DNA from: Halobacteroidaceae bacterium | GTDB taxonomy: Bacteria > Bacillota > Halanaerobiia > B1SED10-174 | DNA length: 64,000 nucleotides | Assembly: GCA_003554145.1 (NCBI GenBank) | Contig: PWFS01000001.1 | Span: 1,439-65,438, forward strand | Direction: 5' to 3' | Shown here: one piece after another, positions 121 through 55,110 of the stretch | Position numbering within the stretch: position 1 is the first letter of the stretch | Layout of the letters: the number at the start of each line of letters is the position of its first letter | Program-made: the position numbers and the translations under genes | The notes under the pieces: model-generated | Databases searched by the model: none | What the model was told of the DNA's origin: nothing | The model's input: only the letters and a program-made list of their open reading frames with translations

Positions 121-660
121 ATGCTTTTTGACAATAAAATTTTCATCACTCTTATAGTTTTTGTGCTGGGTCTTGCCGGCTGGCTTTTTTTAGGTAATCG
201 TTTATCCCCCCCGGTGATTTTGTCAGTTGAAACAGAAGGTGGGGGTGGCAATGAAGGTTTTTGTTTGCGTCATCTCAATCCCCTGCAGTATCGGGTGACC
301 CAGGAGGATGGAACAGAGCCTCCTTTTAACAATGAATACTGGGATCATTTTGAGCCCGGCATATACGTGGATATTGTTTCAGGGGAGCCCCTTTTTAGCT
401 CCCGGGACAAGTACGATTCGGGGAGCGGTTGGCCCAGCTTTACCCGACCCCTTTTTGAGGAAAATATTGTTGAAGTCAAGGATACCTCCCTGGGAATGAT
501 TAGGACTGAAGTTCGCAGTAAAGAAGGGGATACCCACCTGGGTCATGTCTTTGAAGATGGCCCTGAGCCCACCGGTCGGAGGTATTGTATTAATTCTGCC
601 GCCCTCCGTTTTATTCCCCAAGAAAAACTGGAAGAAGAAGGTTATGAGGGAATTTTCTAA
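121..660 (+). CDS. msrB: Peptide-methionine (R)-S-oxide reductase MsrB with ~50-aa N-terminal extension containing a TM helix and a Gly-rich linker
   Basis: Core motifs [70 protein letters not shown] typical of MsrB/SelR; GGAGGAG RBS 7-13 nt upstream of ATG 121; hydrophobic [17 protein letters not shown] at N-terminus. Confidence 0.85.
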
Positions 661-1097
661 AAAACCAGCAAGCCTGCGACCTGGATGACAGACTCAACCC
701 GTTGAAAACCGGTGTTTACATTGTTTGCGGAACAATAGAAGATCGGGGGAAAAACCCCGTTTTGGATTTAATGGTCAGAGCCCTCAATTTGCATTGGCAA
801 AAATAATTGCAATACCATCGATCAGACAGGAATTAAGCTTGTGGCGATATGAACAGTAATCAAAAACTAAGCCCAGGAATTTGCACCGACCTGATCGGCA
901 AAGCTTCAAAGATACATCAGGTTGACTTTAAAAAACAAATAACCTTGATGACGATCAAAGACCCCAGGATTTTTTCCAGGGGTCTTTTTCTTCCTGAGCA
1001 GGGAAAAAGAATTACCGGGAGCAACCAGGTGAACTGAAAAAAGCCTTCGAAAACCAGGCCCCGATTATGAGTTAAAAGCGCTACAAAGGGAACAGAA

Positions 1098-1127
1098 TTG
1101 ACCGCTTCTCTCTCCCCGTGGTAAGAT
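1098..1127 (+). promoter_or_regulatory. Candidate sigma70 promoter (TTGACC -17- TAAGAT) upstream of PurM-like gene
   Basis: TTGACC at 1098-1103, 17-nt spacer, TAAGAT at 1122-1127; sequence-only prediction. Confidence 0.35.
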
Positions 1128-1134
1128 TAAAGGT

Positions 1135-2286
1135 GTGCTTAGGAGAAAGAATTGCTTAACTTTAATAGGGAGGGATTCCCCGGTGAATACTGTTGAAAAA
1201 GCTTTAATGCATGGTCTTTTTGTTCATCTGCATCATAATATTGATCAGGCAATTGATTTTGGGCAGTTAGAGGAGTTGAATAAAAAAGTTGCCCGGATGT
1301 GGCCCGGCGCTCTTCTGGTGGGCCCCCATGATAACGATGATGCGGCTGTTTTTAAGTTCCCGGAAATGGATGGTTTGTTCGTAGGAAAAATGGAAAGCCA
1401 CTGTTCTCCAGGTGTTCCTCGTCCCTATGATGCTGCTGCTACCGGTGCAGGGGGGGCAATGCGTGATGTGGTGGCCATGGGAGCCCGACCCTTCTTTCTC
1501 CTTGATTTTATTGGAACCAGGCCCCTGGAACAGGAAGTGCTGGTTGGCCCCTGTGGCTTCAATGGAATTTGTGATTGTGGGCAGTGTCAGGTCATGACCA
1601 GCGGTGAGCGCCTGGGCCATATAATTAAAGGGGTTAAAGATATGTGCCAGTCCATGGACGTTTTTGTAGTGGGTGGAGGTCTTTCCACTTCCTTTAGCGA
1701 TATTGTTCCCGCAATAGTGGTAGCAGTTATTGGCAAATTAATAACCAGAGAACCTCTGACCAAGCCAGCAAAAAAAGCTGGTCATAAGCTGATTGTGGCG
1801 GGGACTACCGGCAAGGATGGCAATGATACCCTGTACCGGGCAGGGCTGGTGGAAGAAATGCGGCCCGCCCAGGCCTTATTTTCCGAAGAGCGCCAGGTTA
1901 TGGAGGCTTCTATTGCAGCTTTTAAGACAGGAAAAATCAAAGCCTGTTCTGACCTGGGAGCCGCTGGAATTGGAGCTGCTGTTTCGGAATCCGCCCGCTT
2001 TGGAGAACTGGGAGCGGAGGTTGATTTGTCCCGGGTTCCGGTTAACGCCCAGGATATTTCCCCCGAGGAAGTTTTGATCTGTGAAACTCAGGCCCGGATG
2101 CTATTCCACGTGGAGCCCCGGGACGAGGAGGAGGTTTTGCAAGTTATTCGAGAAGCGGGAGTGCCTGCTGAAGTAATCGGGGAGATTACTGCAGAAGCTA
2201 AAGAAGTGTTTAAATATGATGGCGAAATAATTGCAGAAATACCCAATGAGCCTACTCCAGAAATGATGGAAGAGCTAAGGAGTTAG
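1135..2286 (+). CDS. AIR-synthase-related (PurM superfamily) protein of unknown specific function; true start may be GTG ~1184 after AGGGAGGGA RBS
   Basis: Long ORF; DAAATGAGGAMRDVVAMGARP and Gly-rich segments resemble PurM/HypE/ThiL/SelD-type ATP-binding N-domain followed by C-terminal domain; 3' 370 nt are duplicated (diverged) at 3655-4090. Confidence 0.6.
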   Translation: MLRRKNCLTLIGRDSPVNTVEKALMHGLFVHLHHNIDQAIDFGQLEELNKKVARMWPGALLVGPHDNDDAAVFKFPEMDGLFVGKMESHCSPGVPRPYDAAATGAGGAMRDVVAMGARPFFLLDFIGTRPLEQEVLVGPCGFNGICDCGQCQVMTSGERLGHIIKGVKDMCQSMDVFVVGGGLSTSFSDIVPAIVVAVIGKLITREPLTKPAKKAGHKLIVAGTTGKDGNDTLYRAGLVEEMRPAQALFSEERQVMEASIAAFKTGKIKACSDLGAAGIGAAVSESARFGELGAEVDLSRVPVNAQDISPEEVLICETQARMLFHVEPRDEEEVLQVIREAGVPAEVIGEITAEAKEVFKYDGEIIAEIPNEPTPEMMEELRS

Positions 2287-2372
2287 AGAGAAAAGAATAA
2301 TTCAGCCAACCCCCTCTGGTGCATAATTTGGTGGCCCTCGGATTTCATTTTTGTTTTCTTGAGGATAATTGT
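1918..2372. repeat. Copy 1 of a diverged ~440-bp direct repeat (3' end of PurM-like gene plus downstream spacer ending ...ttgaggataat)
   Basis: Aligns by eye at roughly 80% identity with 3655-4090 (e.g. aaatcaaagcctgttctga..., gttccggttaacgcccaggatatttcccc..., caggcccggatgctattcc..., ggagtgcctgc.gaagtaatcgg, ...tgaggataat). Confidence 0.65.
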
Positions 2373-2456
2373 TCACTAACCCTAATGTTTGTGGGGTTAA
2401 GGTTCGGGTAATAAAAAGCAAAAGGGGACAGATAAGAAGGGAAGAAGGGGTCGAGG

Positions 2457-3323
2457 ATGGAAAGGTTTTTAGGCTCTGCAGATCCGGCGATCCGCCGATT
2501 GGCCGGGGATCAAAGGGCAGATGTTATGCAAAGTCCAAAGGTAAAGATCCTGATTAATTTTCCCGCTGTCCACCCTTATAAAAAGTGGTGGGGAACCCAC
2601 TGGCGATTGGTCTCCCTGGCTGATCTCGAGGTCAATCAAGCCCGAGCGGTAATTGAACCTGGCATTGAGCAGGAACTCAAATGGCTGGCTTCTCCCCGCC
2701 GTCGAATTAAGATTATCGATGGCCTGGTTCGGCATTGTGCTTCTCAGGAGGGTAATGCTGTTTATGCCTGCTCTCGCCTGGGCTTTGCTTCTGATCCCCG
2801 GGTAACAAAACTGGTGAACTGGTTAATAGACTGGCAGTGGCCTGATGGGGGTTGGAATTGTGATCAAAAGGCTTCGGGGCGCCGTTCGTCTTTTCACGAA
2901 ACTGTAACCCCCGCTCTGGGTCTGGTTGAATATTACCGGGCCACCGGTGAAAGAAAGGCCCTGACTGCAGCCCAAGAAGCTGCGGGTTTGCTCCTGGAGC
3001 ATAACCTTTTTCGCAGCCTGAAAACCGGAGAGGTGATTGACCCCGCCTGGCTTAAGCCCCATTATCCTCCCTACTGGCATTATGATCTTTTGCAGGGTTT
3101 GCGTTTAATTGATGCGGTGGGATTTTTACCTGATCCCCGGGCTGATGAAGCCCTGGAGATTCTGGAAAAAAACCGAAGGAAAGATGGACGCTTTGCGGGA
3201 CCCAAATGGTACTCAAAAAAACAGCCGGATGCTGTTGATTGGGGCAGTGGGGCAGAAAATGAAATGCTCAATCTGCTCATTGAAAAGGCTCTGCTGGCCG
3301 GGAGAAAAAATGAAAAAAGTTGA
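2457..3323 (+). CDS. Hypothetical protein with QW-type motif (DWQWPDGGW = Q-x3-G-x-W), possibly alpha/alpha-toroid prenyltransferase/terpenoid-cyclase-like fold
   Basis: 288-aa ORF with codon usage like neighbours; single clear QW motif and Trp-rich composition; lies on 1.3-kb segment bracketed by the diverged direct repeat. Confidence 0.5.
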   Translation: MERFLGSADPAIRRLAGDQRADVMQSPKVKILINFPAVHPYKKWWGTHWRLVSLADLEVNQARAVIEPGIEQELKWLASPRRRIKIIDGLVRHCASQEGNAVYACSRLGFASDPRVTKLVNWLIDWQWPDGGWNCDQKASGRRSSFHETVTPALGLVEYYRATGERKALTAAQEAAGLLLEHNLFRSLKTGEVIDPAWLKPHYPPYWHYDLLQGLRLIDAVGFLPDPRADEALEILEKNRRKDGRFAGPKWYSKKQPDAVDWGSGAENEMLNLLIEKALLAGRKNEKS

Positions 3324-3654
3324 ACAATGCTCGGGGATAACACTTTTTGATTACCATTAAAAGGGAAGGGTCATTTAACCCTATATATATGGTGGGGGAG
3401 CAGTTGTTGTGGGGTTGATATAAGTACTGTTTAAAGCTGGGTAGCCCTGGATGCAGCAACAAAAATTAAGAAACTCGTTTTTGGAGTTAAAAAGATCATC
3501 TTTGCCAAAAATTTAATATCGGGATGCTGCGCCAATTATTTCCTGTTGGGGCTTGTTTTTTTGCCCCGGGCCCATAAACCCTAATTCGGGCTCAGCCTTC
3601 GAGGTGAAAGGGTAACCCCCAGATTATTTTGGAAAGCCACTATTGCTCTATAAA

Positions 3655-4090
3655 AGCTTTTAAGACGGTCAAAATCAAAGCCTGTTCTGATCCGGGAACT
3701 TTTTTTTCTGTAGCCCTGCTTTGGGAGAACTGGGAACCGAGGTTGAATGGTCCCGGGTTCCGGTTAACGCTCAGGATATTTCCCCGAGGGAGTTCGAGTT
3801 TGTGAACCTCAGGCCCGGATGCTATTCCGCGTGGAGCCCCAGGACGAGGAGGATCTTCTGAAAGTTATCATAAAAGCCGGAGTGCCTGCAGAAGCAATCG
3901 GGTAGAGTACTGCAGAAACTAAAGAAGGGTTAAAATATGAAGGGGAAAAATTTCTAAAATACCCAATTAGCCTCCTCCGGAAATGGGGGAGGAGCCAGGG
4001 TGAAGGAGAGAAAAGATTAGATTAGCCCACCTGGGGGGCATAATTTCGAGGCCATCCTTTTTCATTTTTGGCCTTCCTGAGGATAATATG
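3655..4090 (+). pseudogene. Degenerate duplicate (gene remnant) of the 3' end of the PurM-like gene 1135..2286; disrupted by frameshifts and an in-frame stop
   Basis: Nucleotide similarity to 1918-2372 with indels; the six-frame ORF track gives no long +-strand ORF here and reading the aligned copy-2 sequence shows an in-frame stop (gggTAGagtactgcagaa) plus indels; its 3' end overlaps the last codons of the intact CNNM gene. Confidence 0.6.
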
Positions 4091-5126
4091 TTTTCTTTCT
4101 TCCGTGCAGAGCAATGCCCTGATTTTGAACAATTCCCCTTAAAAGACGGCCCAGTATATCGGAGCCGGTTATTACTTTTTTCTGAGTTCCCCACAGCAGG
4201 ATAATATCTTCATCTATTACGTCATCTGCACCATGCTGGGGCTGGACTTTGAGGCGCTGGATGATTTTTCCCAGGGGAGCGTGGTCATCCCTGACAATAA
4301 TGGGGCGATGGCAGTACCGGTAGGGGTTAAACCCCTCAAAGTTAAAAAGAGCCTCCCGGATAAACTTATCTGAATCAAGAACCATTCCCGGTTCTCCCTG
4401 GGGATCAACTATAACAATCCACTTTTTCTGGGAGGCCTGGATTTTTTGTAAAAACTCATCTGCAGGTTCTGGTTTTATAGCTGGAAAAACAGGCCGTTTG
4501 CTTTCAAATTCCACCTGGATAATGCTCTGGGGATCAAGGGGTTCTCCTTCGGCAGCCAGGGGCAGATCATCCAGGGCCAGAAAATTTAAGGCCCCTTTTC
4601 CTTCCATTCGGTTTATTTCCGTTTCCCCTGATTCCATGTGTAGTTTTATCAATTCCCGCATATCCTTTTCCCGAAGGAAGTGAATAGCTTCTGATCCCAG
4701 CCAACAATCCAGGACCAGGGCAGTTGGTCGGGCAATGGGAAAGAGAATTAACTGATAAAAGCGAAGCAGGGGAGCCAGCCGGGCTCCTACTTTAATTGCA
4801 TTGCGAGAAAAATAGGCCTGGGGGATGATTTCTCCGGCTATGGTAATTACCACTGTGGAAAAAAGAAAAGCGCTGATCCCGGCCAGAACTGATCCAGATA
4901 AGAGGGCCAGGAGAACATTGACTGAAACATTGGCCCACAGGATGGTTACCAGCAGAAAATTCGCATCTTCCCTTAATTCCAGGACTTTAACTGCATCGGG
5001 GTTGTTCTTGCCTGCCTCCATTTCCAGGCGCATTTTGCTCACGCTAAAAAAAGCCAGGTTTAAACCGGAAAGTGTTGCTGACTGGGAAAGACAGATAATA
5101 ATTCCAATCCAGGTTAAAAGTATCAT
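4062..5126 (-). CDS. CNNM/DUF21-domain membrane protein with divergent CBS pair (HlyC/CorC-family, putative Mg/Co transport-related); lacks C-terminal CorC_HlyC domain
   Basis: N-terminal 4 hydrophobic helices with NxxLxxxxxGxxLAG-like DUF21 pattern, downstream CBS-like segments; AGGAGGG RBS 5 nt before ATG. Confidence 0.7.
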   Translation of the reverse strand: MILLTWIGIIICLSQSATLSGLNLAFFSVSKMRLEMEAGKNNPDAVKVLELREDANFLLVTILWANVSVNVLLALLSGSVLAGISAFLFSTVVITIAGEIIPQAYFSRNAIKVGARLAPLLRFYQLILFPIARPTALVLDCWLGSEAIHFLREKDMRELIKLHMESGETEINRMEGKGALNFLALDDLPLAAEGEPLDPQSIIQVEFESKRPVFPAIKPEPADEFLQKIQASQKKWIVIVDPQGEPGMVLDSDKFIREALFNFEGFNPYRYCHRPIIVRDDHAPLGKIIQRLKVQPQHGADDVIDEDIILLWGTQKKVITGSDILGRLLRGIVQNQGIALHGRKKTYYPQEGQK

Positions 5127-6252
5127 TAGAGCCCTCCTGTTTTTGTTTTTCAGCTCTTAATCTCCAGGAAAGTTCAACAGGAAAATACTACTTTTTTAAA
5201 AAATTTCCAGTCCACTGGCTCAAAGGATCAAAGCTGGAGTTTTCCTCAGAGAGGTTTCTGGATATTGCTATGTTGGGGGCTGGGAAAAGGTTTTTGCGGG
5301 TAGAAAAGTGTAAAAAATATTTTACATCAGGGGTGAAATTTAAAAAGAAAAGGAAGGGTGTGCAAAATAATGGACAGGTGAAGGTGGGGGTTGTCTAAAG
5401 TTCAACACAAAGAGAAAATTCCTGATACACAGGCGTTTAACTTATACCCTGCTCTTCCTGCATTCTTCTGTAGTTCGGGGAGAACATAGTACAGTACAGA
5501 AAAGGAAAAAATATTGTAATTAAGAAACGAAATAGGAGAGGGGTAATTAAAGGTTAAACTCCTGGCAGAGGCCCATTACAGGCAATTTTATCCCCGGAGA
5601 GATGTTTAAATCTGTCTGTTTTTTTTTCTGTTTCTGAATGGGACTGGAGCAAAATTATTTCCAGAGAAAAATTTTTTAAGCAAAAAAAAGAATAAAAACC
5701 CCCCATTTTTGGGCCACCTTTATTTTGGGTGCTTGATTATTATTGGGAAAAAAATTGTAGGGTTGATAGGCCTGTTTTGGTACATTTATTGCTTTATAAT
5801 TGGGCAGGAAAATAAAACAATGAAAGGGAAGGTGTTTTAATTTTTTTTCAGTGGACCTGGAATAAGGAGATAAAGGTCCTGAAAAAGGCTTTTCTTGGGG
5901 AAAGGGGTAACCCGGGGGAGTTTACACTTGTTTTTTTGGCGTTTTTAAATTTTTTACCCTGGGGTCAATGGTCATTTTTTTCAGAACACCAGTTGATAGC
6001 AGAAAAACCGGGGTAATAAAATCCCAATGTGGGGGAAAAGCCATTTCATTTAAACTGGCAGAATGCCCCAAACCAGAACCGGAACCAATCAGGGGAAGAA
6101 GGTCCTGGGGATGCAAGAAGATTTTGGGAATAGTTTTTCAGGCCCAGAGGAATTTTAGTTCAAAACAATTTACCCGGAAAATCCCTTTCTGATCCAGAAA
6201 AAAGAAAAGCTATAATAATATAGCCAAAAATTTACAGGAAAGAGGTGTTTTG

Positions 6253-7146
6253 ATGAAAAAAATTAGAGCGGCAGTTGTGGGGTATGGCAATATTGGAAAA
6301 TATACAGTTGATGCCATTAATGCGGCCGGAGATATGGAACTGGCCGGGGTTGTTCGGCGCAAAAAATCTCTTAAGGGAGCAGAAAAATTCCCCTATAAGG
6401 TTGTGGAATCAATAACTGAACTGGATGATGTTGATGTTGCACTCCTGGGGGTTCCTACCCGAATGGTACCTCAGTACTGCCGGGATTTACTGGCGATGGG
6501 AATTAACACAGTTGATTCCTACGATATTCATGATGTTAAGGATTTAAAAAGGGAACTGGCCCAGGTGGGCAAAGCCCACAATTCAGCAGCGGTTATAGCT
6601 ACTGGCATAGACCCCGGGATGGGTTCTGTGACCAGGGCGCTTTTTAAGTTTATGGCTCCCGGGGGGATAACTCACACCAATTATGGACCGGGAATGAGCA
6701 TGGGCCACTCTGTCGCGGTTAAAGCTATTCCCGGAGTTAAAGATGCCTTATCCCTGACCATACCTAAAGGACAGAGCATGCATAAAAGGGTTATTTATGT
6801 GGAGATTGAAGATGGGGAAGATTTTGAACAGATTCAGCAGAAGGTCAAAGCGGATGATTATTTTGTCAATGATGAGACTCATCTTTTCCAGGTAGATAAT
6901 GTGGAAGAAATGATAAACATGGGCCATAAAATCCAAATTGAGAGGGAAGGCGTGTCCAGCGAAGTTCATAATCAGCGCTATGAGCTGAAAATAGAAGTGC
7001 AGAATCCTGCTGCCACGGCCCAGGTAATGGTTGCTTCTGCCCGGGCCAGCATGAGGGTGGAACCAGGTGCCTATACCATGCTGGATATTCCTCTTGTTCA
7101 TTTTATTGAAGGGGACCCCGAAGAGTTAATTAACCGGTTAATTTAA
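6253..7146 (+). CDS. ddh: meso-Diaminopimelate D-dehydrogenase
   Basis: IRAAVVGYGNIGK Rossmann start, GIDPGMGS, NYGPGMSMGHSVAVKAIPGVKDAL, HKRVIYVE match recalled C. glutamicum Ddh motifs (VAIVGYGNLGR, WDPGMFS, WGPGLSQGHSDALRRIPGV, HKRQCFVV); length 297 aa. Confidence 0.85.
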   Translation: MKKIRAAVVGYGNIGKYTVDAINAAGDMELAGVVRRKKSLKGAEKFPYKVVESITELDDVDVALLGVPTRMVPQYCRDLLAMGINTVDSYDIHDVKDLKRELAQVGKAHNSAAVIATGIDPGMGSVTRALFKFMAPGGITHTNYGPGMSMGHSVAVKAIPGVKDALSLTIPKGQSMHKRVIYVEIEDGEDFEQIQQKVKADDYFVNDETHLFQVDNVEEMINMGHKIQIEREGVSSEVHNQRYELKIEVQNPAATAQVMVASARASMRVEPGAYTMLDIPLVHFIEGDPEELINRLI

Positions 7147-50488: not shown

Positions 50489-51514
50489 GTGGCAAAAGAT
50501 GTGCAGAACGAGAAGAAATCCAAAGAACTACTCTTAGAGGTCAAAAACCTAAAAACCTACTTTCACACCGAGGACGGCGTGGTTAAAGCTGTTGATGGTG
50601 TATCCTTTGAAATTTACAAAGGAGAGGTATTAGGTATTGTTGGAGAATCTGGTTGTGGCAAAAGTGTAACCTCGCTGTCTATTATGCGCCTGGTCCAGGA
50701 ACCCCCTGGGAAAATCTCTGCCGACACACTTACTTTTGAAGGAGCGGAAATCCTGAAAAAGAGTGAATCTGCTATGAGGAGGATCAGGGGGAATGATATC
50801 TCCATGATCTTCCAGGAGCCGATGACCTCGCTGAACCCGGTGTATACTGTTGGAAATCAGATTTCCGAAGCCATTATTCTCCACCAGAAATTGTCCAAGG
50901 ACAAGGCTATGAAAAATGCGGTCGAAATGCTGCGCAAGGTTGGTATTCCGCTTCCCGAGAAAAGGGTGCATGAATACCCCCACCAGCTTTCCGGTGGTAT
51001 GCGCCAGCGGGTAATGATCGCCATGGCACTGTCCTGTAACCCTAAACTCTTGATTGCCGACGAACCAACCACCGCACTGGATGTTACCATCCAGGCCCAG
51101 ATCCTGGAGTTAATGGGTTCTTTGCAGCGGGATTTCGATGCAGCCATTATGTTGATCACTCATGACCTGGGAGTAGTTGCTGAGACCGCCGACCGAGTAG
51201 TGGTTATGTATGCGGGTAAGGTAGTGGAATATAGTGATGTGAATACGATTTTCCACAATCCTCGCCACCCCTATACCTGGGGTCTTCTGCAGTCCATCCC
51301 GCGTCTTGATGAAGAGCGGGAGCGACTCCTGGTAATTGAAGGTGTGGTTCCCAATCCGCTATTCCTGCCGGATGGTTGCAAATTCCACCCTCGCTGTCGT
51401 TTTGCTTCTGAGAGATGTTCAGAAGAAGAACCCGAACTGGAAAATATCAATCAAGATCATCAAGTTCGCTGCTGGCATTATGATAAAGTTGCCGAAGCGG
51501 ATAAAAAGGTTTAA
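50489..51514 (+). CDS. oppD: Oligopeptide ABC transporter ATP-binding protein
   Basis: GESGCGKS Walker [10 protein letters not shown]-terminal oligopeptide-ABC Cys-containing extension. Confidence 0.9.
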
Positions 51515-51530: not shown

Positions 51531-52529
51531 GTGGCTAACGAAGAAATCCTACTAGAAGTCAATAATCTCAAGAAATACTTTCCCATAAAGGGTGGAGTTT
51601 TCGGCCGGGTTGTTGGCAATGTTAAAGCTGTAGACGGAGTTTCCTTTTATGTAAATAAAGGGGAGACTGTGGGACTTGTTGGTGAATCCGGTTGTGGCAA
51701 GACCACGACCGGGAAAGTTGTTCTCCGCCTGGAAGAAGCAACAGAAGGCGAAATTCTTTTTGAGGGTCGCAATGTCCTGGAACTGGGGCGGGAAGAAATG
51801 CGCAGCCTGCGCCGGGAAATGCAGATAATTTTCCAGGACCCCTATAGTTCACTGAACCCCCGGATGACCGTTGGCAATATTATCGGGGAAGCCCTGGAAA
51901 TTCACGGTCTGGCCCGGGGTAAGGCCAAGGAAAAGAAAGTTAAAGAACTTCTGGAAGTTGTTGGGCTTACCGCCCATCACATGCGCCGCTATCCTCACGA
52001 GTTTAGCGGTGGGCAGCGTCAGCGGATCGGTGTAGCCCGAGCCCTGGCCGTGGATCCCAAATTGATTGTATGTGATGAACCTGTTTCAGCCCTTGACGTT
52101 TCTATTCAGGCCCAGGTTATTAACCTGATGGAGGATTTGCAGAAGGAATTTGACCTGACCTATCTATTTATTGCCCACGACTTGAGTGTGGTCAAGCATA
52201 TCAGTGACCGGATTGCAGTTATGTATCTGGGGAAAATTGTTGAACTGGCTGATAAAGCGGCACTGTTTAAAAAACCCATTCATCCCTATACCCAGGCTCT
52301 TCTCTCCGCCATTCCCATTCCTGATCCAGCAATTAAGAGGGAGAAGATAATTCTGAAGGGTGATGTTCCCAGCCCAGTTAATCCTCCCTCGGGTTGCCGT
52401 TTTCACACCCGTTGCCCCTACGTTATGGATATTTGCAAAACAGAGGAACCCGAATTTGTGGACTGGGGAGATCGGCACTTTGCTGCCTGTCACCTGGAAG
52501 AAGGTGCTCCCGAAAGAGAAGTTCTTTAA
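51531..52529 (+). CDS. oppF: Oligopeptide ABC transporter ATP-binding protein
   Basis: [18 protein letters not shown]-terminal CRFHTRCP motif. Confidence 0.9.
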
Positions 52530-55023: not shown

Positions 55024-55110
55024 TGGTGCCGAGAGCGGGATTCGAACCCGCACAGGCTCACGCCCACAGCGCCCTCAACGCTGCGTGTCTGCCAATTCCA
55101 CCATCTCGGC
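55024..55110 (-). tRNA. tRNA-Leu (anticodon GAG), class II with long variable arm
   Basis: Reverse complement GCCGAGATGGTGGAATTGGCAGACACGCAGCGTTGAGGGCGCTGTGGGCGTGAGCCTGTGCGGGTTCGAATCCCGCTCTCGGCACCA: 7-bp acceptor stem, anticodon stem CAGCG/CGCTG with loop TTGAGGG (anticodon GAG), T-loop GGTTCGAATCC, encoded CCA. Confidence 0.85.

Follow-up and report, generated by a model that had tools for sequence, protein, structure and literature searches.

A probable single-crossover insertion scar at a convergent-gene junction of an uncultured soda-lake bacterium

Gene arrangement at the PurM-like/CNNM junction

The DNA analysed is a stretch of 64,000 nucleotides (the window) from Halobacteroidaceae bacterium (assembly GCA_003554145.1, contig PWFS01000001.1, positions 1,439 to 65,438 of the forward strand). 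Between window positions 1183 and 5126 two intact convergent genes, one AIR-synthase-related (hereafter PurM-like) and one encoding a CNNM-domain membrane protein, are separated by an inserted segment (X) with a single gene, and X is flanked by two copies, A and B, of the gene-end junction. The features of the region are as follows.

1183..2286, plus strand: intact PurM-like gene, 367 aa as called (the mechanical open reading frame begins at 1135)
1909..2373, plus strand: repeat copy A, comprising the PurM-like 3' end, spacer and CNNM relic
2374..3646, plus strand: inserted segment X, about 1.27 kb, absent from relatives
2457..3323, plus strand: gene for a 288-aa single-domain α/α-toroid protein with one QW motif
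3647..4004, plus strand: copy B part 1, PurM-like pseudogene fragment, 5'-truncated and frameshifted, with premature stops
4005..4092: copy B part 2, spacer (4005-4061) and the working last ~10 codons plus stop of the CNNM gene (4062-4092, minus strand)
4062..5126, minus strand: intact convergent gene for the CNNM-domain membrane protein, 354 aa (Pfam CNNM, E=5e-34)

The PurM-like gene matches Pfam AIRS (E=3.5e-15) and AIRS_C (E=1e-25); its NCBIfam matches, to PurL, SelD, ThiL and HypE, are all sub-threshold. The ratio of nonsynonymous to synonymous substitution rates (dN/dS) of this gene is 0.03-0.05 against sister lineages. The CNNM protein displays 75-82% aa identity to the convergent neighbour in relatives, and its gene has a dN/dS of 0.10 against the related locus L108.

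Extent and content of the repeat

Smith-Waterman local alignment pairs copy A (1909-2373) with copy B (3647-4092) in the same orientation, with 371 matches, 69 mismatches and 25 + 6 unaligned nt in 17 blocks, so that 84.3% of the aligned columns are identical. The alignment scores 425, whereas 200 shuffles reach 19.5 on average (sd 2.3, maximum 31); by BLASTN the identity is 77.8% when gaps are counted, over 468 columns (E=2e-100). A repeat search splits the pair into co-linear blocks D1, D2, D3, D5, D9 and D10 at offsets of 1717-1738 nt. A diverged direct repeat had been proposed here in an earlier reading made from the letters alone (the sequence-only reading); the similarity is far beyond chance, and the repeat lies where that reading placed it, with its start 9 nt earlier (1909 instead of 1918).

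The repeat has the content then described, namely the PurM-like gene end, its stop and the downstream spacer, to which a short piece of the CNNM gene can be added. Copy A consists of the functional last 378 nt of the PurM-like gene including the stop (1909-2286), a spacer of 56 nt (2287-2342) and a non-functional relic of ~27 nt of the CNNM 3' end (2343-2370). In copy B the PurM-like part is recovered by tblastn as pieces in frames 1, 3, 2 and 1, thus in three different frames, and the alignment displays two in-frame GAG>TAG changes and a net deletion of 16 nt. The downstream copy is therefore, as had been claimed, a PurM-like pseudogene fragment that has lost its frame, and it keeps the real 3' end of the CNNM gene. 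For annotation purposes, 3647-4004 should be treated as a pseudogene and not a gene, and the 288-aa open reading frame as a lineage-specific acquisition.

The ends of the repeat coincide with the ends of X to within ~20 nt, and A and B are nowhere adjacent. At the left boundary a weak extension of 16 nt is possible, to 1893/3619. Neither flank of the 288-aa gene (2371-2456 and 3324-3646) scored above shuffles when compared with the remainder of the PurM-like gene, with the CNNM gene or with nearby DNA; the duplication is thus not larger than ~0.49 kb. The 9-mer AACCCTAAT occurs near both ends of X; its left copy is conserved in neither L108 nor L109, and it was treated as a chance occurrence.

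By BLASTN self-comparison A/B is the sole long repeat within the 64 kb. The other self-match is of 80 nt at 75% identity (50582-50661 and 51621-51700) and falls on the Walker-A regions of neighbouring Opp-type ABC-transporter ATPase genes (50489-51514 and 51531-52529), two ordinary paralogues.

Relatives with an uninterrupted junction

PurM-like relatives were found at 19 loci in a scan of one genome per species and at more than 80 in a metagenome scan. The five closest loci (L001, L002, L016, L023 and L099), with 82-83% aa identity, carry Halobacteroidaceae or Bacillota labels of metagenome-assembled genomes or metagenomes and come from soda-lake sediments. In each of them the PurM-like and CNNM genes converge directly across a spacer of 55-93 nt, the 288-aa gene is absent from between the two, and the downstream order of DAPDH-like and Dak2/DegV genes is kept. 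Comparison with related genomes, which the sequence-only reading had put forward as a check, thus does recover the uninterrupted junction in conserved downstream synteny. Because these five relatives lack both the interruption and the 288-aa gene, the arrangement in the window is derived and not ancestral.

Copy A is ~74% and copy B ~68% identical in nucleotides to L016. Both are much closer to one another than to any outgroup and have lineage-specific states in common, which indicates that the duplicated DNA came from this lineage after its split from the relatives. When the coding differences between A and B are polarised by the outgroups, 43 agree with A, 4 with B and 23 are ambiguous, so that 43 of the 47 resolvable changes fall on copy B; the upstream copy is in this respect the functional PurM-like end that it had been taken for. 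Over codon positions the differences are distributed 24:20:26. Together the 43:4 split and the even spread over codon positions indicate that the copies started out essentially identical and that copy B, free of constraint, has decayed neutrally ever since, as copy A stayed under selection.

Occurrence in other assemblies and age of the insertion

The structure is 100% identical at three further loci (L020-22, from one JGI assembly and two Logan assemblies) and is also present in a second JGI sample (L112, 99.97% nt identity), in two ENA loci (L108 and L110, ~96.5%) and in an NCBI metagenome contig (L109, 89.6%). An assembly artefact is ruled out by these diverged copies of the structure in independent assemblies from several samples. 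Identity between the window and L108 varies according to the class of DNA:

Functional coding sequences: 97.6-98.5% identity (copy A 97.6%)
Ordinary intergenic DNA: 95.4% identity
Non-coding tail of the insert: 93.7% identity
PurM-like fragment of copy B: 91.4% identity, plus 10 gap columns

The rate of change in copy B is no lower than that of intergenic DNA. The decayed gene end can be used as a datable molecular fossil, an internal neutral clock: the A-B distance K is ~0.18, almost all of it on the B branch, compared with a synonymous distance (dS) of 0.27-0.35 between the window and L109. On these distances the insertion is old and dates from about, or somewhat before, the split of the window and L109, which fits the sharing of the insert by L109.

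Copy A of L109 (1940-1966) keeps ~19-22 more nt of the CNNM 3' end, ATGTTTTCTTTTTCCCCAC, than does the window, where the corresponding positions are 2370/2371 in copy A and 4088-4110 in the CNNM gene. From this longer remnant the original duplicated unit can be traced to about window position 4110, ~20 nt further into the CNNM gene, and the lineage of the window and L108 later lost 19 nt exactly at the joint of A and X. In the databases no PurM-like protein lies between 83% and 94% aa identity, and the genome and metagenome scans gave no PurM-like relative between 83% and 99% identity. Clustered at 90%, the PurM-like protein falls in a group of five, each with the insert; the cluster of the CNNM protein has a single member.

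The inserted segment and its 288-aa protein

Segment X is made up of 83 nt of upstream sequence, the 288-aa gene and a non-coding tail of 323 nt in which no coding relic was detectable. The single 288-aa gene with one QW motif that had been reported for the insert is borne out: 2457-3323 is the one real open reading frame in 2374-3646, and its product carries the motif K-L-V-N-W-L-I-D-W-Q-W-P-D-G-G-W. Residues Q127, W128, D130, G131, G132 and W133 are invariant in an alignment of 43 family sequences. No transposase, integrase or terminal inverted repeats were found in X, and X had no match in plasmid and phage nucleotide collections. Nucleotide and protein searches of plasmids, phages and IMG/VR with X gave nothing, or remote matches at 28-37% aa identity, and no relatives of the 288-aa family were found in IMG/VR. 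There is no second copy of X in the window and no near-identical paralogue in the protein collection.

The protein has no Pfam hit at E<=0.01. Its family has more than 6000 detectable members, with 70% identity for the best non-self match; UniRef labels a few of those from actinobacteria 'prenyltransferase'. An α/α-barrel fold and the QW motif are both present, in which the protein resembles class II terpene cyclases and prenyltransferases with their α/α-toroid. It differs from class II terpene cyclases in being of a single domain, in reaching no family profile threshold and in its lack of DxDD: the NCBIfam squalene cyclase model gives 13 bits against a cutoff of 323, the SHC match in a PDB profile search has E=0.33, and direct reading of the 288-aa sequence reveals no catalytic DxDD motif. 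In structure the protein best matches YPO2471, which is exported and uncharacterised. This large α/α-toroid family, uncharacterised and without a Pfam model, may merit a study of its own.

The 288-aa gene is under purifying selection, with a dN/dS of 0.12 against L109, and is kept by selection. Its codon usage ranks 14 of 40 and its GC3 is typical; its GC content of 0.511, against 0.480±0.021, is uninformative. Codon usage had been suggested as a means of recognising the insert as foreign; here it yields no foreign signal, the gene being typical of the window.

At three other loci (L103, L104 and L105) family members stand amid toxin-antitoxin modules (MazE/PemK and PIN/HicB-like) and SUFU, ankyrin-repeat and DNA_alkylation genes. 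These neighbourhoods are variable, unrelated accessory-gene settings, and no flanking repeats were found around the homologues there.

Origin of the arrangement

The arrangement is an old, fixed insertion scar of a known and ordinary kind, and reveals no new mechanism or system. At somewhat better than an even chance, it is the scar of one old gene acquisition at the convergent-gene junction of this uncultured soda-lake bacterium by single-crossover (Campbell-type or ends-in) recombination, the Campbell-type route having been suggested already by the sequence-only reading. The ancestor would have had the PurM-like and CNNM genes converging on a 56-nt spacer. A donor would have consisted of a foreign X of 1.27 kb, with the 288-aa gene, and, joined to it, ~0.47-0.49 kb of junction sequence from the same lineage, made up of the final ~380 nt of the PurM-like gene, the spacer and the final ~47 nt of the CNNM gene. 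As a circle (Campbell-type) or as an ends-in linear molecule, this donor would have recombined with the chromosome by one homologous crossover to give target copy, X and target copy in that order, such that the PurM-like gene would use copy A and the CNNM gene copy B, with nothing disrupted. Because the homology segment spans both stop codons, each gene would keep one complete 3' end, and the event could for this reason be tolerated and fixed. Afterwards the redundant PurM-like fragment of copy B and the CNNM relic of copy A decayed neutrally, and the 288-aa gene was kept by selection. Experiments in E. coli in which circular non-replicating plasmids entered the chromosome by single crossover gave inserts with a duplication of the homologous locus, 109-950 bp long, on either side (PMC3240628). 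On such an account the locus is a clean natural example of a gene gained between two convergent genes with damage to neither.

The data fit this account in that they point to a single event and to copies near-identical at formation, and in that the ends of the repeat and of X coincide with no A-B adjacency, as a single event predicts; the crossover as such is a reconstruction. Several points weigh against it. The collections searched yielded neither a donor molecule nor a circular form nor an intermediate lineage. Neither in composition nor in codon usage does the 288-aa gene look foreign, its acquired status being read from synteny and nothing else. The origin of a chimera joining X to a 0.47-kb chromosomal fragment is left unexplained and needs a prior illegitimate joining. 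Finally, one-step illegitimate events, i.e. unequal end-joining of sister chromatids or template switching that captures X, give the same end product, and a two-step history would also be compatible with the data.

A one-step illegitimate rearrangement is the less likely course, although one to be taken seriously. Sister chromatids or a stalled fork would have been broken or switched ~0.47 kb apart, X being captured as a 1.27-kb filler, and rejoining by end-joining or microhomology-mediated template switching would have left a tandem duplication with the insert at its join. This gives exactly the order A-X-B with copies initially identical, needs no pre-formed chimeric donor and agrees with the lack of any recombinase or mobile-element gene. 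Neither junction, however, has convincing microhomology after the decay that has occurred, the window has no second X and the protein collection no near-identical paralogue, and a complete functional gene is uncommon as filler. The two-step alternative, also raised by the sequence-only reading and disfavoured here, is decidedly improbable: a 0.47-kb tandem duplication would have come first, with X arriving later at the join point or replacing intervening sequence. Tandem duplications are indeed common in bacteria (see also PMC3784515), yet a later insertion would have to strike the join point within ~20 nt and leave no A-B adjacency, the duplication, unstable as short tandem duplications are, would need to survive up to the second event, and 3/3 diverged lineages already have both features.

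It is also improbable that X is all that remains of a larger site-specific integrative element, such as a prophage or island comparable to e14 or phage 21 in icd. That element would have integrated at the PurM-like 3' end, brought a replacement end (copy A), displaced the native end (copy B) and later lost its integrase and the rest by deletion. Such an origin would account for the geometry, with the intact end continuous with its gene and the displaced fragment beyond the insert, and the 323-nt tail could be a remnant of the element. Against this stand the want of an integrase or any other element gene, a tail with no coding relic, and the lack of similarity to phages, plasmids or IMG/VR; the differences between the copies are not concentrated at synonymous sites (24:20:26), their 43:4 distribution onto the copy B branch means that copy A is not a diverged element-borne allele, and the repeat includes part of the CNNM gene, which a gene-restoring att site would not need. 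A transposon or insertion sequence (IS) would be expected to leave a target-site duplication of no more than 2-14 bp and to bring terminal inverted repeats along with a transposase. A transposon or IS insertion was rejected: as the sequence-only reading had argued, a duplication of ~465 bp is too long, there is no inverted repeat at the ends of X and no transposase, and the only open reading frame is that of the α/α-toroid protein. Least credible of all is an ancestral arrangement from which the relatives would have lost X and one repeat copy, leaving no scar, by recombination between the direct repeats. Recombination of A with B would presumably regenerate exactly the 'empty' junction of the relatives, but the divergence of A from B (K ~0.18) is far below that of the window from the relatives (coding DNA ~74% identical in nucleotides, spacer essentially unalignable), A and B have derived states in common relative to all five outgroups, and the loss would have had to occur independently at least three times (L001/L099, L016/L023 and L002).

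A more far-reaching form of the single-crossover account would have X and its homology arm be the footprint of an unrecognised transfer of single accessory genes by small recombinase-less circles. These would pick up a few hundred bp spanning a convergent junction and insert non-disruptively through host homologous recombination, the α/α-toroid family travelling in this way. This is very improbable; homologues of the 288-aa gene elsewhere lack flanking repeats, and no circle was found.

Comparison with known systems

Single-crossover integration is used in insertion-duplication mutagenesis. The locus resembles Campbell-type insertion-duplication in that direct repeats of the target, hundreds of bp long (109-950 bp in PMC3240628), lie on both sides of the insert, the empty site has one repeat copy, no element-encoded recombinase is needed, and genes with their 3' end inside the homology segment stay intact. 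Unlike the experimental cases, it would have arisen naturally and long ago in an uncultured anaerobe and become fixed there, its homology segment spans the 3' ends of two convergent genes with neither disrupted, and one copy has decayed by ~16% plus indels.

The elements e14 and phage 21, integrated in icd of E. coli, leave a displaced icd fragment, and islands that target tRNA genes are comparable. As in these, the intact gene end adjoins its gene and a displaced, non-functional 3' fragment lies beyond the insert. Unlike in these, integrase and element genes are absent, the repeat is longer and extends into the neighbouring gene, and the substitutions show one decaying copy and not two selected alleles.

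With homology-facilitated illegitimate recombination (HFIR) in natural transformation, the locus has in common foreign DNA anchored by a few hundred bp of homology, with no mobile-element machinery (PMC3240628). Classical HFIR, in contrast, gives insertion with deletion or replacement of recipient DNA and no flanking duplication. The duplication products in the E. coli study were attributed to single crossover of circles and not to HFIR (PMC3240628).

Transcription signals and surroundings of the insertion

A scan of 600-6300 against Rfam gave no match, and promoter-like sites in the same interval were at chance level. Terminator-like sites numbered 8, against 4.3 ± 2.2 in shuffles, with none at the spacer or junction. 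In relatives the PurM-like/CNNM spacer forms a strong bidirectional intrinsic-terminator hairpin (z -2.3 for L001, 3556-3612, and -2.5 for L016, 1186-1242), whereas neither of the window spacers (2287-2342 and 4005-4061) folds better than shuffles. Since no terminator hairpin separates the PurM-like and 288-aa genes, the latter may be transcribed by read-through from the former.

Beyond the start of the CNNM gene, the interval up to the DAPDH-like gene (5127-6249) is 1.1 kb of AT-rich (35-41% GC), gene-poor DNA with no Rfam match. In all five relatives an ankyrin-repeat protein of 239-256 aa is encoded between the CNNM and DAPDH-like genes; tblastn found no remnant of it in the window. The absence of this gene at 5127-6249 is a second lineage-specific change, adjoining the insertion. 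The only tRNA gene in the window, tRNA-Leu(GAG) at 55024-55110 on the minus strand, is far from the insertion and has no link with it.

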